Shown here one piece after another: positions 5,928 to 60,200 of a stretch of DNA of 64,000 nt (positions are counted from its first letter, which is position 1; each line of letters opens with the position of its first letter). The position numbers were made by a program, and so were the translations under genes. The stretch comes from Ancylonema sp. (Eukaryota), in assembly GCA_050230475.1 (NCBI GenBank), contig JBFLGF010000118.1, positions 1 through 64,000 on the forward strand, read 5' to 3'. Below the pieces are notes generated by a model. The model saw only the letters and a program-made list of their open reading frames with translations. It was not told the origin of the DNA and made no database searches.

Positions 5928-6737
5928 GCATACGACTTTGGGAGAGGGGACCTACTTTTTGGACGGAAGTCAACCGGTTGATTGACCTGCTGGTGGTGGT
6001 ACTCAGCTATCGTATTTCTCCACGTGCTTTTTATTTGATGACCATGTGATTTCGTACACGACCTATCGCTTCCCGTTTGTTGGCCGGTCCAGGACTATGT
6101 AGTGGTGGTTCTACATTGTGTGCTTGTGTATGAGGGTTCCATTTCAGGAGTGGGGGAACACATTGCGAGTTGTGTTGGAACTCTACTCGTTTCCCTCAGA
6201 AAAAAATTCTCCACTCGATGGTGTGCACCGTGTGCAAACTCTCTATCTTGCAATGATGTTATCTTGGTTGTGTGGCGCAGATCTCGCGGAAGTGCCGTCA
6301 CATTCACGTACAACCCAGCGACGACGTACTTGGTGCAATCAAAACATGGCTAGGGACGACTTGGGGACATTCACCTTGGCCTATCTTCCAGGAAGTGGAC
6401 ACCTTGTATCTTTTTATGGTCTCGCATTTCACGATATGGGAGGCCTTCGCATGTCACATGGAAGGTGGCCTGTTATGTTACTCACGTTTTAGGGTGGATG
6501 TTGTAGTCTCACATTCTAGAGTCATCAAGGGTCAAGGGTCAAGGGTCGTTCTAATGGAAAGTAAATCGTTTGGAGGGCATGCGTAGGTCATGGAGACAAG
6601 ATGGCGAACACGATCAAGCTAGTGCACGATCAAGCTCCGACAATGACTTCAACAATGCATGTAAGGTATACAAGTCATTTATTTGACATTGAGTATCAAG
6701 CAACGACCAAAAACGGATTCCTCCTATATTATTTACG

Positions 6738-6814
6738 AGGTGTAGGTGTAGGTGTAGGTGTAGGTGTAGGTGTAGGTGTAGGTGTAGGTGTAGGTGTAGG
6801 TGTAGGTGTAGGTG
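6738..6814. repeat. (GGTGTA)n microsatellite
   Basis: Direct reading; it creates a spurious (GV)n ORF. Confidence 0.97.
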
Positions 6815-9126: not shown

Positions 9127-10953
9127 TCATTCCAACCCGCCCATGCCCCTTCTGACGCCAGCTTCTGAGGCACTGGCGCTGCTGGCCAGGCCCCATCCCT
9201 GGCAATTCCACGTCAAGCCATGGCAGAGCCAAGAGCAGAGTGCAGCCACAAAAGGGGGCCTCCCACACAGGAAGTTACAACAGGATGCAGCTTTTCTACT
9301 GATGCGGCTGTCAAAGACTAGGCTACCTTGACCAAAACCCGAGTCGCATAACAAAGGAGGTTGTGTCCATCACCACCTTTTCCATGTCTACTCGATGTCT
9401 TACCATTTTCAAAACATTTATGTGCTGTCACTTAGGCTTCTCACCTGATCAGATTTGCACATGTTTGAGATTTTGTTCGAAGAATACTCGTCCAACCTCC
9501 AGTCTGTGACCTTCTCTTCCGTTCCTTCTGTGTAAAACCTGTATGTGGTGACCACAGCCTCTTGCTGCACGTATTTTTCCTGGGAGTCAACGACAACGGA
9601 GGGGTGGCCAATGGCTCTCCAAGAACCACCCGCTGCAAAGCGGACAGGGAGTGCGCCCATGGCGGAATGGAAGGAATGGATTCGTTCGACCGACTTCGGT
9701 GCGGAGGTGACAAAAAAGAAGTTGTCCGAAAGTGGCATCGGCATGTTGCCAGAAGAAACTGGCATGTCTGCACGATTGGCGACTCAAATAGCAGCCATCA
9801 GCCATCAGCGTATCAGCTTTGCTACAGAAGAGGTTTAAGGCGAATGAAACAGGTCGAGGGGGTTTAAAACCTTTCGACCTTGTGTTGACATGGTTTTCTG
9901 TTCTTCCAGGACGCTATTCCTAAACCCCAGTAAGCATTTTCTAATTAGAGCCAGAAGAACACTGTCGCCAACATTGCAACATTTCCAGTTTGATGCTTGT
10001 TAACATGTTTTTCCGGCACAAAGGCACAGTGTACCATGCCTGACTTCACAGCTATTGAAGCCCAGAAGAATTATGATGTGTTTCAAACGTATCCAGACTG
10101 TGCAGTAATTTCGCTCCTACCGCGCCAAATCTGGAGTGCTTACAAACAGGGAATAAAAGTCATGGTGTATGTTTATGGAACACAAATGGTAAAACAAGTT
10201 GTTGCTTCGGATAACAGGCTGCACCCCACCACTGAACAAACAACAATTCGGACAGAAGGGCTTGCATAACAGTCTGCAGGTGAACTGTCGAGTGATGCTT
10301 AGGTTGCATAATGTAAGTCCACATAAACAAATATTTACTTCTGATTTCCAGTGTTGCCTCCATACAAACGACTCAGACACCACCAATTTCCGTTGAATAA
10401 CAAGAATAAGTCACTCCATTTGTTCATTCGTTTCTTCTGTTCTCGTTTTAGTTTTTTTTTTGTCTCGAACACTGGCTTTTAAAAATCACTGGCCGGCTGT
10501 CCTTCCACCTGTCGAGCAGCACTCTGAAGCCCGCACGGTGCGCATAATAAAACGATAGTTAACACACCTGACAGCTGCACCGGATGATAGAGAAAAATGT
10601 CGTCGACATGGCAGACTGGGGCAGCGATGTTGGGGCAACCCTGAAGCACTTTGGGCAGCAGATGGTATGCAAGCTCGCGGGGTAATGGCTGAAATCGGAA
10701 CCCCGGGGGTAGACACGAGGCTGACGATCCAAGACTGCAACGGCATACTGCCAAACTGCAGAAACACAAGAACAACATTAGACATAAATCAAATTATAGA
10801 CGTCGGGATTTCACTGGGACTCAGAACCAGAAAGGTAATGCTAATGCGGAAACCACATTATGTAACAAAAAATGAACAGCGCAACGAAAAAAAGAGCGGT
10901 CGTGCAATTAAAACAACTCACCATGTCAGAGGACACGTCGTATGAAACTCCAT
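9127..10953 (-). CDS. NAC-domain protein with an N-terminus copied from the neighbouring PHD gene; exons 10953-10922, 10755-10568, 9767-9445, tentative last exon 9198-9127
   Basis: LPPGFRFQP..EL..HLLPKV and DIFLYHPVQL (NAC subdomains A/B); NFFFVT, GGSWRAIG, TYRFY..G....TDWRLDEYS (C/D). A phase-1 intron follows subdomain B and a phase-0 intron follows D, as in typical plant NAC genes. Frame is open across the junctions; the 3' end is uncertain. Confidence 0.75.
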
Positions 10954-11228
10954 GCGGCCTTACGAGACTCGCTTGTTGGACGACCTTAAGATAGCGAGGG
11001 AAAGCGGACTTACAAAACTATTAGGATATAAAGCCATTATTCAGCAACCTTGAAGCGCCTAATTGACGACGAATTTCCTTGATCTGGAAATAATTGAGGG
11101 CATTTGAAACACCAGAGGTGTTACTTGGAACCTCAGCTCCACGGAATGTCAGTCCATCGCTGAAATTCCCCCTGGATTTTCTCCCCGGAAGGACCTGCCA
11201 CCTGCTTCCTAGATCTGGGGATCGGCAA
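10716..11228 (-). repeat. 513-bp inverted duplicate of 14193-14705
   Basis: Base-by-base reverse-complement match (roughly 90% by eye) covering leader, ATG exon, intron 1 and the first 40 nt of exon 2. Confidence 0.95.
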
Positions 11229-13099: not shown

Positions 13100-13666
13100 C
13101 TATCCCAGATTGTAGGCAAGGAGGTCAGGAATGCTAATGGACGGCATCTTCAAGTCGCGAAAGAGGGACTCAGGAGTGACTTTCGTTGAGCGAGTCGGTA
13201 CATCCTCATCTTCATCACACTCTTCACTCCAACCCCGGGCTTTGTACAAAGCCCCGGGCATTGTTAGCTTTTTTGTTTGTTTTGCCGCCGCCACTAGGAC
13301 GCTGTACGAAGTGTACCCCCCACTTGACCAAAACGTGTACAATCTGGCTGCAGACCTTTTCTCCCACAAAAAATACCGTTGGGGAACTAGATCTACGTGA
13401 CCAGAGCCTGAATCAGAGCTCTCTGGAGCTCTACCTCCGCTACTTTCGTACTCTATCATCATGCTTCGTAACGATACAAGTTTCTTGTGATCGTCATCAT
13501 CACGCACCGAGTTGGCAATTGTCGTTCGATGCACAAGGTCGTCGGCCGCCGGGGGAGAGAAATAACTTTCGGAGCTATGCACATCTTCAGAAGTCAACCT
13601 CGGAGTGACGAATGACACAGAAAGGCAGTCATGTCGGGAGGGTTCATACATAGAAGGAAGAACCAT
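13100..13666 (-). CDS. Intronless ORF of about 188 aa, unknown function
   Basis: Open frame with non-repetitive protein-like composition, divergent from the PHD gene; no motif recognised. Confidence 0.3.
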   Translation of the reverse strand: MVLPSMYEPSRHDCLSVSFVTPRLTSEDVHSSESYFSPPAADDLVHRTTIANSVRDDDDHKKLVSLRSMMIEYESSGGRAPESSDSGSGHVDLVPQRYFLWEKRSAARLYTFWSSGGYTSYSVLVAAAKQTKKLTMPGALYKARGWSEECDEDEDVPTRSTKVTPESLFRDLKMPSISIPDLLAYNLG

Positions 13667-14468
13667 CACCAAGGAGATTAAAGATATGACTCATGCCCCA
13701 ATTGCCGCGCTTGACCAAACCGCCATTCTAAGACCTCCATGTGATTTAGATTGATTCCTCCACACCATTCCCACCTCCGCCACATTGGGCCTAGAATCCC
13801 TGTCAACGAGCCTACGTACTAGCAATAATTATTAGAAGGAGCTCAAATCCATGGTCATAGAATCCATTAGAATCCATGGTCATTAGAATTGGTCAGAGGT
13901 GTGAAGACGAGCGAATAACCCGTTATTATGGTAATATGTGGAGAATAATCGCTTCAGGCCCACACATAATAAACGATGGTTGAAAAAAAAAACCGAGACT
14001 AACGAACGGAGAGAAACGCGGATAAAAGCTGGCGTGCAGAAGCCGTGGAAAGTCCACTGGTACGGCCGCTGGCGCATTTTCGCCCGGAGCGAGCGTCCTC
14101 GCCCGGACCGGACAGCCTACAACTGCGTAGACTTCCTACCCGCCCCGCCGCCCCAAATCTTGGACCGTGCCTGCGCTCATGCACTCAGGCGCTTGCCGAT
14201 CCCCCGAACTAGGAAGCAGATGGCCGGTCCTTCCGGGGGAGAAAATTCAGGGGAAATTTCAGCTATGGACTGACATTCCGTGGAGCTAAGGTTCCAAGTA
14301 ACACCTCTGGTGTTTCAAGAGGCTTCAATTATTTCCAAATTCAGGAAATTCGGCGTCAATTAGGCGCTTCAAGGTTGCTGAATAACGGCTTTATATCCTA
14401 ATAGTTTTGTAAGTCCGCTTTCCGGCGCTATCTTAAGTTCGTCCAACAAGCGAGTCTCGTAAAGCCTC

Positions 14469-17400
14469 ATGGAGTTTCATACGGCGTGTCCTCTGACATG
14501 GTGAGTTGTTCTAATTGCACGACCGTTCTTTTTTTCTTCGCGCTGTTCATTTTTTGTTACATAATGTGGTTTCCGCATTAACATTGACTTTTCAGTTCTG
14601 AGTCCTAGTGAAATCCCGACGTCTATATATTTTTTATGTCTAATGTTGTTCTTGTGTCTCTGCAGTTTGGCAGTATGCCGTTGCAGTCTTGGATCGTCAG
14701 CCTCGCCTCTGTTTCTTTCAGCAAAGCCGGCTGCCACCAAAGTCAGCTTCTGGGAGACTCCTTCTGCGCACCTTCGCTTTCTCACCGACTTCTGCTATAA
14801 TTCAAAAGCGCTTCTCTACGACTCCCCGACTTTGGAGGTTTTGGTACCCAAGCTGCAGGTGGAGCAACGTCGGATCAAACGTCCGGTGGCAGGTAACACT
14901 TTATTTCCTGATGGGGAAAAGGACCGAGCTCGAAGATTTGGGATGTGCACATATGAGGTGGAAGTTGGGACATTGGATTGACATATGGATTGAATCAGGG
15001 TCGTTCATTTCAGAGCAACCTCTTGGGACACTAGACATCGAGCTGAATGTTCGCTAGCTTTTCAGCTCTCTCTCTCTCTCGCACTCCCTCTCTCTCTCTC
15101 TCGCTCTCCCTCTCCGTCTCTCCCTCTCTCCCTCTCCCTCTCCCTCGCCCTCTCCCTCTCCCTGTCCCTCTCCCTCGCCCTCGCCCTCTCCCTCTCCTCG
15201 CCTTCTCCCTCTCCCTCTCCCTCTCCCTCTCCATCTCCCTCTTCCTCTTCCTCTCCCTCTCCCTCTCCCTCTCCCTCTCCCTCTCCCTCTCCCTCTCCCA
15301 CTCCCTCTCCCTCTCCTTTAATCACACATGGAGTCCCCAGGAAAAGGAATCATCTCACATCCCTAATGTCTAACCTGCTTCTGTCCGTTCAGCTACCAAG
15401 CCGCCGCCCGCTCCTCTCCGCCCTCCACCTGCTGCAGACGCGCCCCTTGTACCCCCGCCAGCAACCACTGCAAAGAGGACGCCACCTGGCAAGAAGCCAG
15501 CCTCTCGCCTAAAGCTGACACCTGTCCTCAAGGAGCCAGAAGTAGAGAAGGCCCTGGACCCTGCCCCCAAAGCCCCAAAAGCCCCAAAACCCCCGAAGGC
15601 CCTCAAAGCCCCCAAACTCATCAAGGCCCCCACCAATGAGGTTGCTGTCAAGGACAAGGATGTGCATCAGGAGGTGCCAGCTGGCGAAAAACAGGCTACA
15701 AAAGCGCTAGGTGGATTGCTACACGCTACAGAAGCGCCAGGTGGGCCAGCGAAGGCAGATGTGGTCAAGGTCCGTGAGGAGGTGCCAGCTGGCACTGGGG
15801 AGTCGGAGAAGCCAACCATCAAAATAAAGCTGAAAAAGTTGGCAGGGGCAGCCAAGGGGGGTGGGAAGGGGAGTGGCGGGGGGAGGGGGGTGGAGCAGAA
15901 TGAGGATTCTCTGCCTAAAGTTGCCAAAGTGGCAAAAGTGGCACAAGAGGCAAAGGTAGACCATGTGGCAAAAGTCGAGAAGGTGGTGGTGGCAGAACCC
16001 ACGAAAGCAGTGGTGAGATTGTGGTGCCGTGAGAGAGTACAAACGAGTGATCCAGGGTTGTTTGTAATGGGGACCCTAACGGTACACAACAATATGAGAG
16101 GAATTGTAGGATTGATCCACTCTACTTTAGTCTACCCCCCCAAGGTCACCTGGTAGACAGTATGAGAGGAACAATGGAAAGGGAGAATGAGGACAGAACG
16201 GATCAGATGTTGATTTGGGGGACGATACGATCGTAACCTTGTCCTTGAAAGGAATGTGGTTGCTGGAGGAGGGGGTGGTCGTTTCTTTCCATTGGGAGTG
16301 CGTATGCCCACACTTCTGACCGCGCTTATTTTTTTCTTTCCAGGAGGTTTCCTGTGGCCTGTGTGAGAGGGGGGAGGCAAAGGGAAGCGCGAACTCGCAT
16401 GGTCGCATGAAGAGCTGCCCCAAGTGCGAACGACGGTTCCATGCTTCCTGTTTTGCCACGTGGGCAGGGAACAGGGGTGAGGGAGGGAGGGAGGGGGGTG
16501 GATGGAAAGGGAGGAGGGGGTTGTAAGGGAGTTTTTGACGTTGGGGCTTGACGGAGCACGAGAAAGAACCTGGAGATGGAAGGCAAAGAGACCGAAATGG
16601 AGTATGAGCTCTGTTTTTTTATAGACTCGAGTGGCATGATCGTGAGGTGAACGAGGGGTGGGGTTGGGGTTTGCTGTCCTGTTCAGATGCCTTTGAGATG
16701 GACCACTGGGTGTGCGCCACCTGTCGCTCTTGCCAGAAGTGTGGCGATCCTGGATCGGACTCCTCCTCCTTGTTCTGCAAGCGATGCGACGTGATGATGC
16801 ACTGCCACTGCACACAGCCGCCACTCAAAGTAAGGAAGGAGGAGGGACAAGGAGGGAGGAGGGGGAGGTGGGGATGGATGAATGAAAGTGCCTGGGGGTG
16901 GGGTTGGGGTTGGGGTTGGTGAAGGTTCCGCCGAAGGGCCCCTTTCTGTGCAGCAGCCACACGCAGTGTCAGAGCTGTCTCAGTCTAGTGCCGGGGAGTG
17001 GGACGTCATCCAGGTAGCTATAACTTTTTATTTTTTATTTTTTATTTTTTATAATAAACATTATATAACAAAAATAACCCCTTAGACTGCTGTATCGTTA
17101 CAATCCCCTGTGTCCCTGTATCGAGGTCCTCAGGTGGTTCCTTTCCTACTCCCTCTGCGACGCCTGCGGCCGTCTGTTTGTGAAGCACAACTTCTGCCCC
17201 ATCTGCCTCAAGGTGTACCGCGACACGGAGCCCTCCCCCATGGTCTGCTGCGACTCATGCCAGAAGTGGGTGCACACCGCCTGCGATGACATCAGCGATG
17301 ACATGTACGAGCAGTTTCAGGTGGAGCACACCAGGGCCTACATGTGCGCAGCCTGCAGGGGGACGGCCTACAAGGTAGGAACGGGACACGTGGGAAGTGC

Positions 17401-30348: not shown

Positions 30349-30918
30349 TGGTAGTGTTTAGGGGCTGTGAACTTTTGTTGTTACATTGATTTGTCCGATC
30401 TGTTCGCTGTAGTTTGAGTTTTGTCTTCATTCAGCAAATGCCGGCCGAACTTGTAAGTGATGATTGTGTCGACAAGTTCTGGCGAGTCAGCATAAGTGTC
30501 GATAAGTTTTCGTCGATGTGGCATAATGCTTAGCTGTGATTGGTGTCGACTCAGATAGTTTCGATATGTTGACTTAGACGTTTTGTCGATTACACACAAC
30601 TGTACTAAGAGTGGACTTGCACGCAAGATCCTGTAATCAGACTTTCTATCTCAAGCTTGCACTTTTGTTGTGTTAATGCTTGTAATGTCGTGATCGATTG
30701 ACTCATAAGTTGATTGAGAGTTGAACATTATTCTTGCAAAGATGGCATAAGAAAGTTCTCACAGTGTTATAAAAGCAAGTTACTACATCCTGCATGGAAA
30801 GAAAGTTCCTTTTCAAGCATGGCGATCTAAGGCCTCAATGATCCTTGACGATGCTGACTGTCTTGAGATTTGTAAGGGCACAAAGGTGGCACCAGAAGAA
30901 GTGGTTGCTAGGTATGAT
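30349..30918 (+). mobile_element. Decayed Copia 5' fragment: LTR (30349-30763), eroded PBS and gag start
   Basis: LTR similar to 122-526; translation ..FQAWRSKASMILDDADCLEICKGT..EVVARYD matches the Gag N-terminus near 53667. Confidence 0.88.
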
Positions 30919-39626: not shown

Positions 39627-44041
<4,415 letters not shown>

Positions 44042-46722
44042 CGTGGATTTTTTTGCGAGTGAATGTGGGGGAGAGAAGGGAGAGTTGATGGTAACGAAAG
44101 TATGATAGTTGGTTGGAGGATGTGACTTATGTCGCAGTGTCGTTTGTGATGGCACGTATTCAACCGGATTTCGAAGTCGATGATCTATCTAGTTCGAAAG
44201 ATGGGTGTCACGAGAAGCAATAAGTAGTTGATGATTGTCAGCCAAAATTACGAGTCGGAAGAAACCCCACATCTATATGGGGAGGGTTGTACTTTCAAAG
44301 AGGAAGTAAAGACCGATTTTGTTTGTCGCGGGGAGGGTAGACTACAACCACTGGCTTATTTCGCCTTCCATGTAGGTTACATCATGCAAGTGTAGCTAAA
44401 TTTGCATGGCCCATACTCATGTTTCGTTATCTCTGGGTTTGTGAACTTGATTCGAGGGTCATGCAACGAAATGTTGTATTTGCCATGACTTCCCTTGGAG
44501 GCATATCAGACAATTATGCAATCGCATCACACGAGGGTTGTTGTGGTCGTACAACTCCTTTGGTAAGATGACATGGGGACTCCGGGATTTTATTTTTGTT
44601 GTGTGTGGGGTTCCGCTACACAAACAGAAATGTCGTTACGCTATCATGGGTCGCTTGTCGTATATGTAAAAATAACGCAAAATGCCATGTACCCAAACAC
44701 AATTTTGGCAGTGTGCAAGTATCACGCGTTCGTGGTGTCTGAATATGGTTTTATTTCGTGCACAAAGTCACTTGCTTGCATTGCAACAACAATGCCTCCA
44801 TGTATTGAGAGGATCGGTAATGGATGCTCGAATGAGGCGAATCCATGGTTGGTCCATGGTCACCCAATCCTCTTATTCCAATTGGAACTTTATTGGGCTC
44901 GATCTGCATCAAAATTGGATCGGAATGTTTTTTAAACGAAAATGGGCCAACAAATATTGTCTTCAATGTGATCAATTTGAGTACTTAAATATACCGTAAT
45001 GTGCGCTCTCAGGTCATCGAGTTTTTTAATAAAAGAATCCGTTCATCAATAAGTTTAAGCGTTGATTGCGGGCATCTGAAAAGAATGTGAATATTTGAAG
45101 GATGTATTGAGGGTATTCGAAGCTTATACCCTGTGATCCGCAACCAAATTATTCGACCCTGAATCTACCGCATACGGGTATTACGGGATCCCAAGTCGTA
45201 CGCCATACCGTAGAAACTCAACAAAATAATTATCTTCAATCTAATATCTTGGCTAATACAACAAAACATGCTAACATAACCACTTTACTTAGGTTTTTAT
45301 GAGAAAATAGCATCTTGTGTAAAATAGCATCTTGTCTAAAATTTGATGTATTTTCCTTCCCGTCAATATGAATGAAGAGAAGTCGACCATATTTTCCTCT
45401 GCGGTTCTTTTGGTGGGTGTGCGTTCGTGGTTGACGTTTCTTTTTGTGTACCGTGATGAGGGAGGCAAGTACAACGTACATCCGCGGGGTAGCCCCGGCG
45501 GTGTACTATTTGAAGAGGGAAAGACGCTCCTCAAACCAAATTTACAAAAATGATTTCATGTTTTTCACCTGCACCCGTTTCAGCGCTAGCCTCCCCTCTC
45601 CATCCTCAGCGATCAACATACTGCAACTGACGCACCGCTTCGAAGATCGGCCCTTGTTGCAGCCAAGACAGTGGAGTAGAGACCCGTTCGAGACGTAGAC
45701 CGGAGGGTGTTCTATGATCCAGTCCTCTCATCTCCTATCCCCATTCCTGCAGATGTGTCGGAAGAAGACCAAGAGCGTTTGGGAGAGCCACTAGCGTGAC
45801 AACCACTTCTAGTCCCTGTAGAGCCAGTCCGGATACCAGTGTGAGCACCTCTGAGAGGTCCTGAGCGAGGCCCCGACTACGGTCGGTCAGGTACAACTCT
45901 CAAGATGCCTCTAAGCTTTCAAAAGAGGGAGTTTAACGATTTGGAACCAGGTACGACTTTAGAGAACGAACCCTCTGCAGATGTGTTACCAATTGAACCG
46001 AGCATGCATGCATTAAGTAGAGTTGCAGGTCGGGCAAAGGCAACAAAAGTAGTAGCAAGTCAAGTCAAGAGATCTGTAAAATCGGTAGGGAAGTGTTAGG
46101 CACGTCGAGTGTAGCGAGTCCCCTAGCTGGAGACTCTCAGACACACGAGGTGGCTAACCTTGCCTGTGTCAACACTTAGACATATTTGGCACGAAGCAGC
46201 CATCCATCCTGGGGTCAGGGTTTGGCTCTTCTCCCAAGTATATTATTTGAGGGAAAAGAAGGGACAAAACACAAAACAGGAGAGACAACTGCCAGAAGCA
46301 GTTTGAGCTCGGGGAGAACAGTAAAGCGGTCCCTCTGGGTCCAAGGCCAATTTCCGTTTTTATCTGAAAAAGGGGCGTGGGCAGTGTCTAACCAGCCATG
46401 CGTCAGGATGACCCAGGACCACTTGGCACAAAGCACTAATCCATCTTGGGACCACGGCTTGGCTCTTCTCCCACGCAAGGTACTTGAGGGAGAAAAAGGT
46501 GAGACAGTTATTCAACTGCAGCACAAACTGAGCTCAAGTAGTACAGGACGGTTGGGACCTTGGGCCTCGGAGCAGCTTGTATATATGCCAGGCAAGAAAA
46601 CGACATTAGTAGCACCAAGATTTAGCGGGGATGAAGTAGATGAAGATGCTATGTTTGTATAAGATATTCAGGCTCCTAGACAAGAGTGGTACCAACAGTT
46701 TGTCCAGGCTCCAGGGTCCAAC

Positions 46723-47181
46723 TTGTCATACTTGAGTAGTGCTCTGGCCCATAACTTGTTGCTCGATCCCAGCTTTGCAATTCCAGGTCCCCCTCCTCTG
46801 CGCGACATCGTCATGTGGAAGCACACCACCATTCCCAATTTAGCTGGCGTTTTCACCATCGAAGGCCATGCACCACAAGGGGAGTGCGTCTTGGAATCAG
46901 GTGCGAGCTTCGTCATGATAGGTAAGAGGGTGGCAGATTCATTGGGTCTGCATGCAAAGGATTTGGATGAAGGGATCACTTATACGGTTGCCTCGAGTGC
47001 TTCTCCTAAGTGTAGGGGGGTGACCAAAAAGAAACTTGCTATCTGCCTACTCCCAGGCACTCCATATCAGGTCACAACACATCTGCATGTACTGGTAGAC
47101 AATGCTACCTCGTATGATATATTGGTGGGTGCTCATCTCGTCAATCGTGAAATTGTCCTGATCAACTACCGAGACTCTTAG
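46723..47181 (+). pseudogene. Retroviral-type aspartic protease
   Basis: CVLESGASFVMI (D[ST]GA motif with D->E), flap-like TYTVAS, and YDILVG. Confidence 0.75.
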
Positions 47182-47991
47182 TGGAAGGTAGAACTAAAGT
47201 GGGCAACTACGGGAAAACGCAAAGTGCGTTTGACCATTGACCATTGACCATTGACCTTTATGTGACTCCAGCGCAGCTGAGAGAGAAGAAGAATGCAAGA
47301 TTGCAAGGCTATGTGGGAGGACCGTCCGACTACTTCCCCAACGCGACCCCAGGGCAAGTGAAAGCGTTGCCGCACCCGGCATACCAGTGGCACGCACGTG
47401 AGGAGGAAGAAGAACGCGCCCGATAAGAGGAGTGGGCTTGCAATGCCCATGATATCCTTACCACCTGGCTGCTTGCATCTCCTGCTTTGCATCTGCACAA
47501 TATGCGGTTAGCAGAGTTAAAGGAACATTTCGAGCTCATCAGGATGCATGTGGTCAATTTACGCAACTAGACAATGCAGAATAGTATAGGCATCCGAGAG
47601 GGCCCAAAGTCTTTCATTTGGACTCACAAATAGCGTGTCTTGCGTACAACCCTTCCTTTTTACGAACAGTTGCAGAGGGACATCGCCATCAAAGAAGCCG
47701 AGGCTGAGGACGAACGCCGGGCTCGTGGCATCATCCTTCCTGCAACACCACCACCAGTGATCCACCTGTCAGAGTTTTAGCAGGAAATGACACGCCTGGA
47801 CCAACAATCTGCGATACGTCGCACCTTTCAACGCACTCAGGCCCAGAGGGAGGTGATCGTGAACCTGGACCGCACCCGTCGCAGAGCCCTTGCACAGCCC
47901 CTACTGCTCCTCTCCCACCCACATTGGACAAGAGTGTGATCATGTGGAGCCCATCGACACAACTGTCCGTCGCCAGCCAGCTCACCAGCAA

Positions 47992-48729
47992 GGCGTTCAC
48001 ATCTTCGAAGTTTGTGGCGGTGTGGGCTGCCCCAAGTTGATGGAGGCCATGGGAGCAGGTGTTGCGGTCAGACAGTACACCTATGTGGATATTGGCCGCA
48101 ACGAGCATGTCGTGGTTCGCGCTTTCCTCGCCAAGGTTCACCTGCAGTATCCTCACCTCTTGCCCCAATCAGCGATTCAAGGGTTTGACTCTCGCCTTGA
48201 TCAAAATGTATATCGCATCTCTGCTACTGACATGGTCAACCTCACTGCCCGCCATGGTTTTATTGACATGTTTGGATGTGGCTTTCCTTGCCAACCATAC
48301 AACAATGCTGGTAGGGGTAGAGGTAGAAATGACCCGCGACATGGTGTTTTCTTTGAAATGGTCCGTCTGCTCAAGTGAAGTCAACAGGAGCAGGATGGTC
48401 GTCTAGTTCTGTACCTCTTAGAAAATGTGCATATCCGTCAAGATACGCCAGAGGAGGTTAAGGATGGTGATGAACACGTCATGGCTTTACTGAGGCAACC
48501 TAGCATCCGGCTAGATGCATGTTCGGTAGGGGGTCTCAGTCACCGCTCGCGTAGGTACTGGACTAACATGTTGTCTCCTCGGGAGCTCAAGCGTTTTGTT
48601 CCCCCTAACCACCTCTTGGATCCTCTGTCCTCAGCCCTTGAGCTCCACCATGAACTAGCTCCCTACGAATCGACAGACCAGCCCCCTCATCGCCGTGTCA
48701 ACATTCGAGGTCGCCCCCGTCGGGTGCTG
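47992..48729 (+). pseudogene. C5 cytosine DNA methyltransferase domain (DNMT3-like), motifs I-VIII
   Basis: I: IFEVCGGVG; II: YVDI; IV: GFPCQ; V: GRGRGRNDPRHGVFFEMVRLL; VI: LLENV; VIII: LDACSVGGLSHRSRRYWTN. One in-frame TGA at 48376-48378. Confidence 0.9.
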
Positions 48730-50490
48730 TGTTAGACTCGTATGGAATGACGAGTCTAGCTTTTATAAGCAATCTCACACCACAAATAAATGCATATGGA
48801 AATAGGAAGTGCAAGTAAAGATAAGGATAATACATGAATTGATCACGATACTCAATGAGCACTACTTAAGGGTTTAAATACTAGTCTGAAGCTAGGGTCG
48901 GAACCGAACTCGTTGTAAACGAAAATTGAACATACCTCGGTATAAGAACAAGCTGGAAGTTAAGACCTAATAAAGGACTGACTGATGATGAAGTGTAATA
49001 ATCAAAGAAGGGCTTAACAACGTGTAGGAATATTCGGATAGCCATGCCTTATGCTTGCTAGTCCAGTTGTGACCGTTTACTCTAACCGGGCGCCATATTC
49101 CTAGATGTGCTTGTATGCGGTGCCGGGCACGATTGTGTCCGGTCACCTGATCTGTTGTCACGCTTGATGTCGACAGTTAGAGTCGTTATTAGCGGTTGGC
49201 ATGCTTGACGTGTCTTGATTGGTTCGATCTAGTCATGTCAGAGTGTCCGGCATGTGCCGTTGACACATAGATGAGTTGTCACTCAAGGATAGGCCGACGG
49301 TCAATTGTACCGACCGTCGGCAGACAACGATCTGTAAAGCGCATCGGGTATTACCATCCCCGATGCGATCACAATGTAATTAATTCGTTCCACACACGCA
49401 ACTCTTGTCTCGTTGATCATCAGTGATAGAGATCCTTTGCGTACGGTTCGTTTTGTCGCCCACCAAAAATCTCCTGCACGTAATCACTCAAAAGCTTAGA
49501 GGTTATGGGCCCACGTGCGGTCTAGTTTAGACGCCGTGTTGGTTAAGAACTACAAGCTCCCGCGATTCGCTGCGAAGATCTCTTGAACGGTAAATTGTGT
49601 CTGTAAGGGCAAATTTAGCCGTGGTTGTTAAGTACTGCTAGACGTAATTTCGACATTGCGTTGCACGAAATCGAGTTGAGAGCTGCATTGCAGGAATTGC
49701 ACTGAGAGCTAAAGCTGCGTGAGAATTCTCATAAAATCCTACACAATTGTTGCTATAGATGTCGGATAAATCTCAAATTCCGAAGTTTACTGGAGCATAT
49801 TGTACAGGATGGGCCTTCAAGGTCAAGTATGGGTTAGCAGACAAAAAGCTGCATCGTGTGGTCATGGATTGGGACAGCCTGCTGCGGCGGCGTCGTCCAT
49901 ATGTTATTTTGCCATTGACCCCAGACAATGAGCTGCAGTTTACTACTAGGGGGGTCGACGTTGATGTCGAGAGAAGGACCAGGGAGCAGCGGATTTCCTA
50001 GCAGCTGCCACAGCTCGAGAAATGGGACGAGGATAATCTGGCTGCAATGGCGTACATCCAGAAGCATTTGGGTCCCTCGGAGCTGACACACGTCACGGAC
50101 TGCACGACAGTTGCCGGGATGTAGGAGGCACTGAAGACTTTTTATATGGTGCACGGAGCGATCGAGATCGCCAACACCGAGGCGCTGCTGAGCGCTATTA
50201 TTCAGGCGGAGGCTGAAGACCTCAACGTCTACGTGAAGCGGCTGCAGCAGATCCATCAGGACCTGAAGAACCCGGGTGCGCCGGTGACGCCAATGAAGTA
50301 GGCTATTAATTTGCTGAACTCCCTCAACACTCACTACAGCCCCATGGTGTCGACTCTCATGCCATGGTCGGAAATCATCACCGCATCTTTTCACGATTCC
50401 GCACATTGTGAACGCGCTGCTGCGCGACGACGTTCGCAAGGAGCTGAATGAGCGGAAGAGGGGGGCGCTGCCAGGAGGTCACCACGCAAC
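48730..50490 (+). mobile_element. Ty1/Copia 5' part: putative LTR 48730-49500, half-tRNA PBS, decayed gag (49759-~50490)
   Basis: Starts TGTTAG; PBS at 49501; gag IPKFTGAYCTGWAFKVK...AMAYIQKHLG...LNVYVKRLQQIHQDL...LLNSLNTHYSPMV with in-frame stops. Confidence 0.8.
49501..49514 (+). promoter_or_regulatory. Primer-binding site complementary to the anticodon arm of tRNA-iMet
   Basis: GGTTATGGGCCCAC is the reverse complement of GUGGGCCCAUAACC of plant initiator tRNA. Confidence 0.85.
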
Positions 50491-51795
50491 TATGGTAGAG
50501 AAAAGGTCTGATCGTAGTCCTCTCCCTCTACTTGACTGACTCCCTTAGCCACAACTCTTGCTTTGTATTTTTCTACAGAACCATCTGCATTGACATTGAT
50601 CCTGAACACCCACTTTGACTTCACAACTTTCTTCCCCTTCGGCCTTGGCACAAGTCGATAGACCTGGTTTTCTTGCTGCAGCCATTGCAGCTTTCCACTC
50701 AGCTGCTTGCGGGCTGTTAAGAGCTTCCTCAACAATCGTCGGTGTCTTTATCTCACTTTCCAAGTTGGCAACAACAGCAGCAACAAATGTGTTGGGATGC
50801 ATTCCTCTGTTCTCCCTTGCAGATCGACGAATAGGCTCAGGATCATCGATAGAAGTTTCTGGAAAGTTGTCGGTCACGCCAAGAAAAGGAGTAGCATCAT
50901 CTGGATACCATTCTGGACCATCTTCTAGAATCTTCGTCTTCATCGTCTCCACTAGAATTGCTGACAAGTTCTGGAAGATCTGCACTGTGAGGAAGAGGAG
51001 ATCTCGGAAGCTGTGGCAATGGATTCCGACAGCATCAGGGATCTCTTCATCGACAGAATTTGGATCGCCATAGGCAGGTTGCCCACCTCCAGAAATACCC
51101 CCTCCGAGACCAACACTACCCCCCCCTCTTGCTCAGCTGCATCCAGATCTGGCCATGACATTCTTGTTTCTGCAACTGGCTCATGCACTCTTGCCTTCTT
51201 GCCAATTTTCTGACCCCTCCACCAGCTTTGCTTGACAGATTCATCGAAGTCTGCATGACTGACCAGTGCCAACGTTGTGTACTTTGTTCGTTGCAGGATC
51301 CCAGACTCGGTAGCAAGGACTGTCGGGTGTCGGGATTCCTAACACACCAAGCCAAGCCAGCGCACTCATTTTTCCAGCCCGATCTTGTTTCTCCAGTCGC
51401 ACATAAACTTTGCAGCCGAATGATCGAAGATGATCAACCTTTGGAACTTCTCCTGACCACATCTCCTCTGGAGTTTTTGGAAGTCCGCTGACTTGACATC
51501 GATTTCTGAGGTATGAAGCTAAGGAGATTGCTTCTGCCCACAGACCAAGAGGAAGTTGCATGTGCAAAAACATAGAGCGAGCCCTGTTTGCAACGGACGA
51601 TTCATGCGTTCTGTGATTGCATTGCCTTGAGGAGTGTTTGGCGGAGTTGTCTCATGTCTGATGCTTCTGTTTTTTAGCCACTTCTGCAGACCACCATCGA
51701 TAAACTCTCCTCCTCGATCTGATCTCAGATTTTTAACAAGTTTCCTAGCTTGTCTTTCCCAGATTGCGATCCATTGCTTCAGACGAGGAGCTGCA

Positions 51796-53667
51796 TCATC
51801 CTTTGCTGCGAAGTATTTCCACCCAGGATTTTCGGCTGTATTCATCGACGAGCACCATGTTGTACACTCCTCCCCCTATTGATGCTGGATTGAACGGCCC
51901 TGCCAAGTCCACCGACACTCTTCCCACGCAGACTTGTTCTCCCTCACCAGCTTCTCGTCGAGGATGAGGTTTGTCGTGTGCCTTCCCCAGCTTGCACCCT
52001 TCACAGTTTTGCAGAACTCCTGAGATGCCTCCTTCCAGTCCTCGTACAAGATGTTGTCGTGCCACATTTTTGAGCACTCTCTCATTTGCATGCCCAAGTC
52101 TTGTGTGGAGGAGGTTGATTTCGACAGCAGCTACAACAGCTTCCCCTTCAGTAAGTTGCTGATGTCGAACCGGTGTGCAGATTAGAGTTTTTCGACCTGT
52201 CGATGTTTCGTGCAGAGTGCAGACTTGTTGTCCAAATTTGTTGTAAACTATAATGATGCCACCAGCTTTTCCACTGCAAGTGTAAGACCACCCTGCTTCT
52301 CTGGCTTTCTGACCGCTGAACAAATTAATGCGCATCCCAGGAATGTACAAACATTTCTTGAGTGTTACTTCTCCACACTCTCCCTCGGTATTCAGCTCAA
52401 TTGTTCCCCACTGCTTCACTCGCACACTTCCGACCAGATGATGCATGATGACCTCGTGTGGAATGTCTTCGAGGATTTTGAAAAGATTTCTCTGTCCACA
52501 AGAATGGTGACTGGAACCATCGTCGAAAAGGAAATCTTTGTCCGCATCATCATTATCTGCAACATTTCCATCAAAGATTTCAGCGATGATAGCTTCTCCA
52601 TGACCACAGCTGCTTTCCTCCTCATCGATTTCACCAACGTAAGCTGCTTGTCTCCCAGTGCGTACCCCCTTTCTTTGCCTTCGTGGAGCTTCGTTTTTCT
52701 TGTCGAAACACGTGAATTCCACATGACCAATGGCTCCACAATATCTGCATTCGTTCTTGGAGCAGTCTCTGCTGTAGTGACCTGTCTCTCCACAAGTATA
52801 GCAGTGCCCTCCACTTGATCCACTGCCTCCACCTGTGCCTCCACGACCACCTCTGATTCCACGATTATCTGCTGAATACCCCCTGAATGTACCCCTACCT
52901 CCACGATTGATGATACCACCACCTCTGCCTTGGCTTGAAAAAAATTGTTGCGCTGACCACTTAGCATAGTTTGCCTCTACAACTAGTGCCTCAGCATCTT
53001 TGACATCCTTTTCTTTCTTGTCGTCCAGCTCATCCATTCCCATCTGCCTCCAGATCCAGCTGATCCCAGGTGCCTCTTTCTGTCCATAATAAAGCTTCTT
53101 CAACATGCCGTATTTTGTTCTTGACATGCGAGCAAACAATGCCATCACCTGATCTTCTGCGTTGACTGTAAATTTTTGATGTACACACTCTCTGATGATC
53201 GACATAAAAGTATTCTTGATATCTCTGACTGGCATCTTTTCATCGATCTTGAAAGATTTCAGCTTTTCTTTTGCAATCTGTCGAAGTTCTGGAGACACCT
53301 TGTCATACTCCTCTGTCAGATAGTCCCACATCGCCGTTGGATCTCGTTCAAATTGTTCAAGTGATGTAGCGATGTCGTCACTGACAAATTGCATGAGTAG
53401 CATGACTGCCTTCTTTGAACTTTTGCGGAAGCTTCTGACATCAAGTGTATACTGCTCCATTTCTGCTTCATTTGTTGGCCAGTGTTGATCATCATATCTG
53501 GCTGTAACCTCAGGTGGAATAGTCTCTGTTCCTTTGCAGATCTCAAGACACTCAGCATCATCAAGAGTAGCTGAGGCCTTAGATCTCCATGTTTGAAAGG
53601 TAACTTTATCTCCATCCAGAATGCAGTACTGTGCTCTGATACCACTGTGAGTGCTTTCTTCTGCCAT
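51796..53667 (-). CDS. Copia Gag-protease-integrase(N) open frame starting MAEESTHSGIRAQ
   Basis: 623-codon ORF from ATG 53667; ends at a frameshift in the integrase core. Confidence 0.85.
   Translation of the reverse strand: MAEESTHSGIRAQYCILDGDKVTFQTWRSKASATLDDAECLEICKGTETIPPEVTARYDDQHWPTNEAEMEQYTLDVRSFRKSSKKAVMLLMQFVSDDIATSLEQFERDPTAMWDYLTEEYDKVSPELRQIAKEKLKSFKIDEKMPVRDIKNTFMSIIRECVHQKFTVNAEDQVMALFARMSRTKYGMLKKLYYGQKEAPGISWIWRQMGMDELDDKKEKDVKDAEALVVEANYAKWSAQQFFSSQGRGGGIINRGGRGTFRGYSADNRGIRGGRGGTGGGSGSSGGHCYTCGETGHYSRDCSKNECRYCGAIGHVEFTCFDKKNEAPRRQRKGVRTGRQAAYVGEIDEEESSCGHGEAIIAEIFDGNVADNDDADKDFLFDDGSSHHSCGQRNLFKILEDIPHEVIMHHLVGSVRVKQWGTIELNTEGECGEVTLKKCLYIPGMRINLFSGQKAREAGWSYTCSGKAGGIIIVYNKFGQQVCTLHETSTGRKTLICTPVRHQQLTEGEAVVAAVEINLLHTRLGHANERVLKNVARQHLVRGLEGGISGVLQNCEGCKLGKAHDKPHPRREAGEGEQVCVGRVSVDLAGPFNPASIGGGVYNMVLVDEYSRKSWVEILRSKG
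53633..53644 (-). promoter_or_regulatory. Primer-binding site for the 3' end of tRNA-iMet
   Basis: TGGTATCAGAGC, one nt after the LTR-terminal CA. Confidence 0.93.
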
Positions 53668-54491
53668 CGATGCAAGAATAAAGCACAATTCTTCTCTCAG
53701 ACAAATCGACAGATCACGTCATTACAAACGTTGACACAACAAAAGTGCAAGTTTGAAGTAGAAAGTATTGATTCTGATTAAGGAATTCAGCATGCAAGCT
53801 CAGACCTAGTACAGTCGATTGTTGTCTGGTCAACGAATCTGCCGGTATCGAAACTACATCGTCAATTGCCAATCATATCTAAGCATTCTGCCACAACAAC
53901 AAGTTCTTATCGACACTTGTGCCAGATGGCCAAGTAATCATCAAAACAAGGACGTCGGCCTGCAGCCGGCCTGCAGCCGGCCTGCCGCCTGCATTTGCTG
54001 CTGAATAACGACAAAACTAAAGCTAAATTCCCGGTATTGCTAACGATATAACGAAAAACTAACATTTTCCTTGTTGTGTTCTTCACATTATGTCCCATCA
54101 CATATATTTACACCTGTTGGTGTGCGTCTTTTTCTGTTTTTATTTTTTATGCTGGCTCTGGATTGTTCAGAATCCGGGGAACAGATGACTCGACCAAATC
54201 GGTCCTGGACCAAACCGAGACCACACAGTCAACCGTGGAAACCCGTGGAAACCTGTGGAAGAAATATTTGTTTTCCCTGCCCACGTTTTAACCAAAAAAC
54301 TTTCGGATTACTTTTGTAAAATTGTTGTTGTTTGTTGTAATACTTAGTGTGGCTAACCGAGTCCACATCGGGCCAGATTCGGATGGGCAGTAGACCAAAT
54401 AGTCCCGGGTCGGACCCCAAGAATAAAAGGAAGAAAAATAGTTTATTTGATGACAAATTGTTTGACGAGTATATTTTTTTTATTGTATATA

Positions 54492-55434: not shown

Positions 55435-56282
55435 TTACAACTTGCCCGTGGGGCCAGGGGTGGGGGGGCCCTGGGGACCCTTTTTGATGGGAAGCAAGTC
55501 TTGGCCGGTGGTGGCACCGAAGTAACCAAGAGTCCCAGCACCTCCCAGAACCAAAAACTTCAAGAGAATGCCTCTCTTTGTGAAAGCTCCAGCGAATGTC
55601 TCAAAGAATTTGGACTGCGGGCAGAGTACAAAGGAATGATAGAGCTTAGTGCCTAATCGCTTGATAGACACTATGTTCCTGTTGCAATTTTTGAAGGTAT
55701 TGAGTAACACAGGTACGCGAGGCTCCAAATGGCAACTATTCCGGGACTCTTCGTCGTACAAACTCGAAACGACACAGCTAGCATCCAGATGATGCCCTAA
55801 TCGAATGCTCGTGAGAATACTCATGGGACGCACTTCCGCTTCAATAAGCCATGTCGTAGCGCAGTTGGTAAATTTCCTTATCGTGTGAATGAGGCAGTTC
55901 GGGGAGCCACATAGTGTGGAGTTGAATACAGAGCAACTCCAACGTGAATACCCGAGTCTCTATCAAGGTTAATAACAAATACTTGGGGAGTATCTGGATC
56001 CCTCCCTCACCACTCACTTTGGTATACTGCCCACTATGTGTCTCATACCTGAAGGCCATTGTAGGGTGCGGGTCCGTCCTGACCATACAGGTCCCAAGCA
56101 CCTGTGGTGTTCTTCACATCCTTCAGATCAAAGTAAACGCTTTCATCTCCGTACTTAGCGCGGGGAGCTGCCAGCCGCAGGCTTGATCGCTTGGTTGCCG
56201 GGCAGCTGGTCTTCACGGACACCTTCTGTCCGCAGAAGCTGCTTGCGGCAATAGTAGTAGAGGCAAGAGCAAGGGAAGCCAT
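55435..56282 (-). CDS. psaH: Photosystem I subunit VI (PSI-H) precursor; exons 56282-56049, 55614-55435
   Basis: Transit peptide, then [49 protein letters not shown]...LLPIKKGPQ. Confidence 0.97.
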
Positions 56283-57203
56283 TTGAGTGATGGGCTGTGA
56301 GTATGGACCCTTGAATTCTTGAGATTCAACGAGAAAGGTGCGATGAATATTGCTGTAATCAACTGCGCAGACCCAAAAATTTCACCATCAGAAATTGTCC
56401 CGAGTTTGGGTGCTCCAGGCTGGATAGGGCTGCTGTTGTGTGAACCAATCAGCGTCGAGTCTCCGCGCGCCAAATCCAGTTGCTCCCGATGCTCGATGCT
56501 CGTCCACGTTGGCATTTGTTATGACCGTCCGTTGGCTTCCGCCACGGACGCGGATGGCTACCGCGCGGCTGGCAAAGAGACAATTGTCGGTATACATAGT
56601 ATTGTCGGTATATATAATATGTAGCGGTTGCTTGATAATCCAATTGTCATCACATGTGACAAGTATGTAAACTTGCACTGATGTAGCGGTGGTTTACTGT
56701 GGTTTACTGGCATTTCATACGTACCGCTGAATTCCGACGTGAAACCATGGCGCGTGGTCCAGGTCACTCATACTTAACCATTTAAACCGCGACCGATATG
56801 TCTATTGAGTTTCACACAGAAAATCACCATATGTGTGTGCAAGGTAATTCTCAAATATACAATTTAATTGGTTATTATTTGTGATTAGTACTCCACATAT
56901 CCGATAAGCCGGCTCCTTCTTTTTTCTGTTTTTTTTTACACATACATAAATACTATTTTCGAGGCAGTAGAGCATCTACGACAGCTTTATTGTTCTGGAT
57001 AACGAGAGAAAAAAAGTGTGGATGTGTTACGGTAGGGGCATCCATTAGTGTTATCGAATCCTCTATTGATGTGGAAGTGTGTTATTCTGCTTAAGACGAG
57101 GCTAGAGAAGCCAGAATATAATGATACAGCTCATCAGATGTTTGTGACGTGCTGCGAGGCTTCGTGTCTGAGTTACATTTCTCCGTAGCTGTATCTAGGC
57201 GAA

Positions 57204-60200
57204 ATGGATGCCAAGAGCCGTCCAGCAGTGGTGATTGACAATGGTACAGGGTGAGCACTGCGTCTTCCCACAGCACATGATCAAACACAATCACAGCCGA
57301 TTTCTTGGCAACATCTCGGTTGGTATAGCCTTTCCAGCAAGAAAACAGACACAGAATGCAGAAACCGAAAGACAATGAAAGTGAATGGGTGGGTGTTCTT
57401 CTGTGTAAGTCAGTGCGTTATTGACGTTTCTAGTTGCTTCACCGCCCCTTTTGACCATTGTGGTAGGTTGGCACAATTTCGGTTACATGAATTTCGATTT
57501 TTGTGCAGTTACACGAAGATGGGTTATGCTGGCAACGTGGAGCCATCCTTCATTGTACCTACTGTGGTCGCGCTTAACGAGAATTTCAGCTCCATTAGTT
57601 CGGGACACCAAGGAGGAAGGTCCAGTGCAACAGCTGCAGCCCTTCATAGTGCTGGGGTGATGGCAGATCTAGACTTCTTTATTGGCGAAGAAGCTCTGGC
57701 TGCTGCCCGGCGAGGTTCCTACGTACTAAACAGCCCTATCAAGCATGGACAGGTATGCGTTAGAGGTGGTTTGCTTGAATCGTTACCTGCACTCGTCCCT
57801 GCGCATCAAGTGCTAGATTTGATTGAAAGTGAGCTCATAAAGCTACAGGTTGGAGTCACCTGGCCACCGCATGCAGCACATCCTCTGAACTTTGTGGCCA
57901 TATATAAAACTTGGAGACTTCGTATGGGTGCACTCGGGCCTGATATCAATTGCGCAACAGAAAGATGTTCTCGTTTCTCAGCTAGATGGATGAGTATGTT
58001 TTCGGGGAGCAGGTGGAGAATTGGGATTCGATGGAGAAGTTTTGGCAGCAATGTATTTTCAATTACCTACGATGCGATCCGGAGGACCACTATTTCCTTC
58101 TCACTGAGAGTCCTCTCACCAATCCAGAGAACCGGGAATACACGGCGGAGGTCATGTTTGAAACGTGAGACCTGATCCTTGTTTTCCTTGCCTTGAGAAA
58201 CGTGGCTTCTTCCTGCAATTGCGTGCTCTCTTTGAGTCAGACAGGAACGTTTGTGGGTCAATGCTCAGGAGGCTTGATTAGGGTGAGGTTACCTCCTGCA
58301 GTTTGCTGCTGAATAGTTTGCTGTTGATGGTTACCCACTGCGTGTTACCCAGTTACGCTTTAATGCACGTTGTTACCCGAAACTGAAGTCACCCAATTTA
58401 GCTCATGGGTTGAGAACGAACATGTTCAACGCAGTCAAACATTGTACCAGAAAACCTCAATCACATCACACCCTCGTGCGTCTGCAGGTTCAATGTGGAG
58501 GGTCTGTACATCGCTGTCCAAGCTGTACTCGCCCTTGCTGCCGGTTACACGGCAGACAAGGTATGCAACGTGTGCAATGTTGAACACGTTTGGTTGCGAC
58601 GGTGGGGCTGGGGCCTACAAAGATCTGGGCTGGCGTTTGCAATCACCCTTTATTAGCTTCATTTTGTGTGTGACCGAAAGTGCAACAATAACTTTTTATA
58701 TTAGTTAACATAAATCACAAACATGGTCCTAACTACTTTGAAATCCATAATCACATTATCCTATTTGGTGACTGGCTATATTGTGTTACAACTCCTTAGA
58801 TCCAGTGTCTGTGGTGGTCACGAGACGAGTGATGTCCGTTGGCATCTGACGGCACACACTACTTCCTCGGGAGCTTCCATTACTCTGCATGTTATGCATC
58901 ATCAGAATTAACCAGTACCTCGGAGAGCAGAAAGCTATAAGTTTCTGAGACCTACATCCGAGTAGCAGGGACGGATATCCTACTATCTGTCATCCCCCTT
59001 TAAAGCCTGAAACAATCTTGTACTTCCGGTGACATAAACGGTCAGATCGGTTTCCTCGCTGCAGGCTCCGTTGACGGGTGTCGTGGTCGATGCTGGGGAG
59101 GGTGTGACACATGTCGTCCCTGTGGCCGACGGATACGTGATCGGCAGTTCCATCAAGAGCATTCCCATAGCGGGACGAGACATCACCTCCTTTGTTCAGC
59201 AACTCATGCGGGTGTGTATAATCCCGAGTAGATATGGATATGATTGAAAAGTATGGACTGGGCGCCAACTTTCATGAAGGAAGCTGTGTATGTGACGTGG
59301 ATTTAGACAAATTGCTATTGGCATATGACGGCAAAGCTGCGTTGAAGCTAATTTCACTGACTTCTGTTCATTGTTCAACCCGTACATCCCTAAGAACCAA
59401 ACAGGGCACACGAAAATGCACACAACATGATGCAATCAATGTGATGTCTCATCCTGAGAGGGCGTGACTGGACCGGACCTAATTTGCATAACTGTTGGAC
59501 CCTGGAATGACTTGAGTCTCTCTCTGTCCGAGTTTCCAGTGACACTTACTGACATACTTCACAGCACCATCGCAGGACAGAGGGGAGGCCGTGCCGCCGG
59601 ACTACGCTATGGATGTGGCTCGAAAAGTGAAGGAGACCCATGGGTACACTTGTTCAGACATCGTGAAGGTAAGGCGTCACTTGAACAATCAATCGCGTGG
59701 CTCAGTTTAGTCTGAACGTATGTGCCCACTTAGAGTCCTCAAATACACAAGGTGTCAACAAATCGCCGACGGCTGCTAGGGATTCAGGTGCTATACTTTG
59801 TCGGGGTTTTGGATAAATTTCTAGGCTTAGTGGCCACAGCTAGCTAGTTAGTGGCCATAGAATGTTCTCCTGTCATGCAGAATTACATGAATCTTCTCTC
59901 GCCTGAAATGGAGGTTTTGTTGCGACGTAGAGACTGTCAGATTCACGGTACCTTCTCTACATAAGGAGAAGTCGATTTGATTACAAACTTGTCATGGACT
60001 ATGGTGTGCATTGGGGTGTGACCTCAGGAATACGCAAAGCATGATCAAGAACCTGCAAAATATAGGAAGGTGTGGACGGGCAAACATCACAAAACTGGGG
60101 CTACATACAGCTGTGACATTGGCTACGAACGCTTCCTGGCGCCAGAGGTATGCCACTATCAGTAACAGGTCGTGGTGAGGATGGTCGGGTACTCCTTGTC

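Follow-up and report, generated by a model that had tools for sequence, protein, structure and literature searches.

Cytosine methylation silences transposons, and an element that keeps a de novo methyltransferase of its own raises the question of what that enzyme is for. The closest described system is KnitGypsy-Dnmt3, or 'Gypsy-DNMT3', published in 2018 from the charophyte Klebsormidium nitens (de Mendoza et al., PMC5890265). As far as the available sections of that paper go, another retroelement enzyme, SymbioDIRS-Dnmt3, showed CG activity in yeast, and the retrotransposon enzymes of Symbiodinium are of the Dnmt3 type (DIRS) or of an orphan lineage (LINE), Dnmt5 being encoded by exon-rich host genes. 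Streptophyte Gypsy-DNMT3 is also cited in the accessible part of a 2026 preprint (bioRxiv 10.64898/2026.05.21.726589) and mentioned in passing in that of PMC12344493. A literature search by named terms returned only PMC5890265 and the preprint, and the literature searched, the coverage of which was incomplete, yielded nothing on elements of this kind from Closterium or Sphagnum. The locus examined here lies within a stretch of 64,000 nucleotides (positions 1 to 64,000 of contig JBFLGF010000118.1, assembly GCA_050230475.1, Ancylonema sp.), hereafter the window, for which an initial annotation had proposed a retroelement polyprotein with its own cytosine DNA methyltransferase (MTase). Its statement that a retrotransposon-borne Dnmt3-type domain had already been reported in a charophyte agrees with the 2018 paper, whereas its attribution of Dnmt5-type enzymes to Symbiodinium retrotransposons is contradicted there.

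The window locus is with high probability a dead copy, truncated at both ends, from a repetitive retroelement family that is likely of Ty3/Gypsy type and in which a protease and a DNMT3-like MTase were likely joined in one polyprotein. That the MTase itself is a DNMT3-type enzyme borne by a retroelement can be stated with still greater confidence. The recognizable parts of the element are given below.

45500-48729, plus strand: surviving fragment of the multi-copy protease-DNMT retroelement, delimited by contig depth; the 5' edge is approximate and lies somewhere in 45404-45650.
46186-46499, plus strand: internal duplication in the pre-protease coding region (copies at 46186-46262 and 46423-46499).
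46855-47148, plus strand: retroelement aspartic protease (Pfam PF13650, BLAST and a profile of the proteases of relatives).
47230-47256, plus strand: tandem repeat of a 7-nt unit (about 3.9 copies), the likely site of the first frameshift here.
47257-47900, plus strand: protease-to-MTase linker, in another frame and with 4 stops, bridged by sibling contigs over 46890-47456 and 47282-47886.
47900-47920, plus strand: further frame break or breaks between linker and MTase, placed by the relative P0009.
47986-48729, plus strand: DNMT3-like C5-cytosine MTase, motifs I-VIII (Pfam, profiles and predicted fold), cut before the target recognition domain (TRD) threonine and motifs IX/X.

Like KnitGypsy-Dnmt3 as described in the available text of PMC5890265, the window element has an intronless, non-permuted DNMT3-type domain in a retroelement open reading frame (ORF) and is present in many copies in a green-plant genome. 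It is likely a decayed member of that published Gypsy-DNMT3 kind, with its membership incomplete: the enzyme falls in a subclade of its own (100/97), a linker of about 270 aa separates it from the protease, the copy is dead, and neither a reverse transcriptase (RT) in the same ORF nor DIRS-like split repeats are seen in the window fragment, which has lost both ends. SymbioDIRS-Dnmt3 likewise has a DNMT3-type domain in a retroelement polyprotein, but is set apart by its description in the same text as a DIRS-class element with a tyrosine recombinase, a dinoflagellate host and a reported independent capture. The EpiLTRs/DAM-LTRs in the accessible part of the 2026 preprint are also long terminal repeat (LTR) retrotransposons carrying DNA methyltransferases; their DNMT is sister to DNMT4 and is accompanied by DAM and a chromodomain, neither of which is seen in the fragment that survives in the window after the loss of most of the element. 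The published green-plant case comprises one species and an enzyme inactive in yeast, and the present locus adds a distinct many-copy lineage from another genome.

With X placed at the in-frame TGA, 47863-48732 matches Pfam DNA_methylase (PF00145; E 5e-8, 33.2 bits with the cut-off at 22). Of the C5-MTase motifs listed in the initial annotation, the following were recovered in canonical order: motif I (48004-48027), the motif II Asp (48088), motif IV GFPCQ with its Cys intact (48289-48291), motif VI ENV (Glu at 48421) and motif VIII (48541-48561). Motifs I, IV (PC), VI (ENV) and VIII (RxR) lie in a Rossmann-type fold, as in C5-MTases. The family profile ranks DNMT3A/B/C first (DNMT3A 88.9 bits, DRM2 49, HhaI 47, DNMT1 13), and a 16-row profile of the close clade also puts DNMT3C/B/A first. 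An AlphaFold model (pLDDT 92), which was built from the family alignment and is no proof that the window copy folds, superimposes best on DNMT3A (Z 17.3, rmsd 2.7, 196 residues aligned), as compared with M.HaeIII at Z 13.1. A DRM identity was rejected on the canonical motif order.

The catalytic domain of mammalian DNMT3A/B/C is the best profile and fold match, and its catalytic PC, ENV and RxR are all present in the window enzyme. The differences are an identity of ~19%, an insertion after motif II in the window enzyme, a Cys in place of Phe in motif I (common to P0009 and others) and the lack of PWWP and ADD. Motifs IX and X are absent from the window copy, which is cut off at 48729. The relative P0001, 88% identical over 42 aa, continues beyond this break through motifs IX/X, and thus the insertion cut a once complete enzyme; P0001 on its own matches neither Pfam nor PDB.

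The retropepsin seen in the initial annotation was confirmed when Pfam was run: 46663-47178 matches Asp_protease_2 (PF13650) above the cut-off (E 2.5e-5, 25.3 bits against 24.3), with LESGAS at 46891-46908 and YDILVG also present. The active-site codon at 46894-46896 specifies Glu in the window copy and Asp (D[ST]GA) in relatives. In BLAST comparisons the window protease matches the proteases of six protease-DNMT relatives, and a profile of these proteases gives E 1.4e-16 over five window segments. Hence, both domains come from one element type.

Sibling copies were assessed with contigs of two sequencing runs, X1 and X2, which represent one sample of one study, possibly the source of the window itself. 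Summed contig depth, which is not equal to copy number, stands at 114.6 (X1) and 12.9 (X2) in each of the four bins before 45404 and then rises to 4772-8911 (X1) and 278-478 (X2) across the nine bins of 45404-48562; this jump places the start of the element near 45.5 kb. Of the 624 X1 contigs placed on 46840-48765, 464 fall below 95% similarity, and a single site may differ in as many as 35 distinct contigs. Siblings have sense codons at the window stops at 46660, 47424 and 48376, and diverged siblings, as judged by a sibling protein and contigs, span the whole stretch colinearly with the DNA. The protease-MTase element is multi-copy in the host genome. The initial annotation had named a single-copy MTase or a chance juxtaposition with the protease as what would refute it; sibling contigs and homologous polyproteins showed instead an enzyme that is multi-copy and protease-linked.

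The element had also been described as an intronless run in one frame. The segments starting at 46186, 46723, 47890 and 48427 do share a frame, but a single run does not stand: the shared frame has 14 stops over 46186-48729, 11 of these in 47245-47860, and a middle part of ~0.65 kb (47241-47936) is coding in another frame, itself with 4 stops. The shared frame is probably the net outcome of about three frameshifts. Diverged sibling contigs across the 7-nt tandem are 14 nt shorter than the window, and therefore this tandem, where the gap presumably lies, is likely the first of them. P0009 (87%) joins linker and MTase in one protein, its match beginning in the linker frame (79% identical over 47859-47900) and continuing in the MTase frame (78% over 47920-48165), which points to further frameshifts near 47900-47920. 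An in-frame stop, the TGA at 48376, lies inside the MTase. Given the stops, the frameshifts, the protease active-site Glu and the missing motifs IX/X, the window copy is predicted to make nothing functional, in agreement with the initial annotation, which had called it dead.

A phmmer search over 1.84 billion representative proteins gave 727 matches at E<=1e-3, and the best 150 of these were examined. RT, RNase H or integrase is present in the same chain in 65 of the best 150: the DNMT follows RT or RNase H in 48, is accompanied by integrase only in 11 and precedes RT in 6. The other 85 are mostly fragments, together with gag-protease-DNMT proteins (Klebsormidium nitens GAQ93235.1 and Closterium GJP34393.1) and protease-DNMT proteins (Closterium CAI7850249.1 and one from Mesostigma). 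A further Closterium protein, CAI7855100.1, has the layout zfCCHC-protease-DNMT-RT. GAQ93235.1 is homologous to the window in both the MTase (30%, E 9.5e-19) and the protease (E 0.006), and is presumably one of the KnitGypsy-Dnmt3 elements of PMC5890265.

The best 150 also include 28 Gypsy polyproteins (among P0010-P0150) with the order RT-RNaseH-DNMT-integrase, often with a C-terminal PHD finger; nothing on an RNase H-DNMT-integrase-PHD layout was found in the literature searched, the coverage of which was incomplete. In P0094, P0115, P0130, P0139, P0107 and P0123 the DNMT stands beside Dam-like or PCIF1_WW-scoring domains; in P0139 it lies behind a LINE-type endonuclease and RT, and in P0107 before a Gypsy protease, with a weak Dam match. 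These six may be double-methylase elements whose enzyme is of DNMT3 type, which would set them apart from the EpiLTRs, where the DNMT is sister to DNMT4. A word-index protein search gave no relatives among 1621 longer candidates and one among 311 near-length candidates, and four viral contig scans gave none. A metagenome scan returned 80 of 134 loci; those that scored best by profile (16) and those read out (8) were MTases of prokaryotic type, and none had a retroelement context.

An IQ-TREE phylogeny of 67 rows was built from 51 rows of phmmer matches (a chosen subset, window included) and 16 prokaryotic MTases, with host DNMT3 left out; its bootstrap is rough, and the non-prokaryotic rows were picked as matches to the window. 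It separates the 51 rows from the 16 prokaryotic MTases at 100/100. The window groups with short fragments in a subclade of its own (100/97) that does not belong to the clade (98/89) formed by 18 sampled RT-RNaseH-DNMT-integrase proteins. The order of the window subclade relative to Klebsormidium, Closterium and Mesostigma is unsettled in this tree. A recent bacterial or phage transfer, or contamination, was rejected on contig depth and on the tree, in which the window is not among the prokaryotic MTases. The suggestion in the initial annotation that part of the enzyme looked bacterial or phage-like was not upheld, as profile and fold favour DNMT3 and the tree sets the window within the retroelement clade, apart from the 16 prokaryotic enzymes.

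Several observations weigh against the reading of the locus as a Gypsy-type protease-DNMT3 element. No single contig reaches from the protease to the MTase, so the link is tiled. For this element, RT, RNase H, integrase, a gag zinc knuckle and a terminal repeat were all missing, both from the window and from every close-clade protein; the assignment to Gypsy rests on more distant relatives of about 25-33% identity; and the 3/3 close relatives that reach motif X stop 6-9 residues later. On its own, the window sequence matches M.HaeIII and M.HhaI first, if weakly (E 0.003-0.007), which explains the bacterial impression of the first reading. One group of prokaryotic MTases reaches 86.7 bits on the family profile, near the 88.9 of DNMT3A, and since the tree is also without host DNMT3, an origin from the host is not proven. 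KnitGypsy-Dnmt3 gave no methylation in yeast, a result that its authors call inconclusive in the available text of PMC5890265. Finally, the ratio of observed to expected CpG is 0.63 for the element, against 0.60 for the adjacent Copia, which has no MTase. With depletion no stronger than in that Copia there is no signature of self-methylation, and CpG depletion was dropped as a sign of it.

The separation of the two domains by frameshifts and by 0.8 kb without a Pfam family would fit a protease fragment that had come by chance to lie beside a host MTase pseudogene. This is most improbable: the multi-copy depth is continuous, sibling contigs and proteins bridge the gap, and single proteins of Klebsormidium, Closterium and Mesostigma contain homologues of both domains. 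It is also improbable, if less so, that the MTase was taken from a DNMT3-like enzyme of a phage or bacterium and not from host DNMT3, the element being otherwise as described. The prokaryotic ORFs L001, L005, L013 and L029 reach 83-87 bits on the family profile and share GFPCQ and RYYWTN, and Atlas feature matches, obtained with a fragment query, are phage or bacterial PF00145 clusters. However, the prokaryotic loci had been fished with the query's own GFPC motif, which biases their score, and L001 itself prefers HhaI (80 bits) over DNMT3 (49). Moreover, GI.TGL, AHR.R.W.NL and E.ER..G[FY] are common to the retroelement family and DNMT3 in the alignments, and the tree keeps the 51 phmmer-match rows and the 16 prokaryotic rows apart. 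L001 (1558-2637), L005, L013, L029 and L009, C5-MTases of prokaryotic type whose motif VIII resembles that of DNMT3, reach 79-87 bits on the retroelement profile and are candidates for the prokaryotic sister group of DNMT3.

A variant layout, which is a sub-case of the favoured explanation, would make the MTase the last domain of a gag-protease-DNMT ORF. RT and integrase would be encoded by another ORF, separate or recoded, or would be lacking, the element then being non-autonomous; the enzyme would be produced at levels similar to Gag and enter the particles. Among the proteins that reach motif X, the sequence ends <=15 residues past it in 3/3 of the close clade (after 6-9 residues) and in 2/2 of the Klebsormidium clade (at the same column), as compared with only 3/72 of the RT-RNaseH-DNMT-integrase clade, and therefore the enzyme may close a gag-protease ORF and not sit in Pol. 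Two word-index searches among longer candidates (1621 for the window and 324 for P0001) turned up no fused close relative, a negative that the tool itself rates as weak. On the other hand, the contigs behind the three close proteins are short (674 nt for P0001) or were not available, so that the protein ends may be contig ends or decay; Closterium is mixed, with 2/9 ending early and 3/9 running on into RT; and the available text of PMC5890265 places the DNMT in the Pol ORF. This layout is a serious possibility, though we would not yet favour it. More tentatively, one ancient DNMT3-type module may have been passed among green-lineage retroelements into at least four positions: after the protease (window, Klebsormidium, Closterium and Mesostigma), between RNase H and integrase, ahead of the protease next to a Dam-like domain, and downstream of a LINE RT. 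Under this joint proposal, the module here would end a gag-protease ORF and be packaged or belong to a non-autonomous element.

For the favoured protease-DNMT3 element, general retroelement biology suggests that the polyprotein of intact copies would be packed into the particle and that the protease dimer would release the MTase from it. With S-adenosylmethionine (SAM), the MTase could then methylate cytosines on the double-stranded cDNA before or at integration, by extension from the available text of PMC5890265. These would likely be CG sites, because DNMT3 and SymbioDIRS-Dnmt3 methylate CG. New copies would resemble methylated host DNA, or the enzyme might set the chromatin of the insertion site. 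Self-methylation of the cDNA is, by this analogy, a plausible role to which we give slightly less than an even chance. The window copy is dead and, as far as shown, makes no change to the host. The relatives show the module to be far more widespread than in the reports found, and provide more intact domains to assay and ORF layouts to compare. If the module is indeed shuffled and ORF-terminal, self-methylation would be a widespread, selected retroelement trait and not a curiosity of a single species, and the DNMT would be produced in the quantities of a capsid protein and packaged, or kept by non-autonomous elements without RT.

The 3' end of the element is bounded by two Copia elements, the parts of which are as follows.

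48730-49500, plus strand: 5' LTR of a high-copy Copia truncating the MTase (loose contig ends before 48729/48730; joints at 49498).
49762-50400, plus strand: decayed Copia gag of the LTR-bearing element (PF14223, E 3.1e-14).
50500-54065, minus strand: fragment of another Copia, nested in the first and interrupting it, with gag, zinc knuckle, protease and integrase; ends approximate.

Contig ends at 48729/48730 agree at only 0.44-0.51, which corresponds to many unrelated flanks. The stretch at 49501-49513 resembles what we take to be a primer-binding site. The initial annotation had placed the loss of motifs IX/X and of RT at the Copia insertion; the motifs are missing and the LTR does begin at 48730, whereas for RT the loss is only an inference, as neither the remainder of the MTase element nor a Gypsy RT was found elsewhere in the window. 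One X1 contig joins the Copia LTR end (49498) to the MTase element at 45889, which suggests that another copy of the same Copia family inserted into a sibling MTase element at a different site. The nested minus-strand Copia has an LTR near 53750-54065, with low-copy DNA beyond, and diverged pieces of it (72-73%) occur at 246-527 and 30490-30885.

In the surviving fragment itself, self-BLAST of the window revealed no LTR or other terminal repeat of the MTase element, nor is a zinc knuckle left. The pre-protease duplication consists of 77 nt, 78% alike, with a period of 237 nt (79 codons), and no Pfam family matched the 5' region or the linker. The host is a green plant, possibly a streptophyte alga: the first exon of PsaH (56052-56285, minus strand) matches plant and algal PsaH, and the genes of the window are intron-rich. 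An intron-rich gene at 40400-44041 (plus strand) presumably encodes an aminotransferase resembling LL-diaminopimelate aminotransferase, and that at 57500-58175 (plus strand) is presumably for an actin-related protein like ARP3. Away from these genes, inverted repeats at 10711-11228 and 14193-14710 (392 nt at 92% plus 78 nt at 96%, ~3 kb between them) enclose a 196-aa frame at 13100-13690 (minus strand), an arrangement that resembles a DNA transposon or foldback element.

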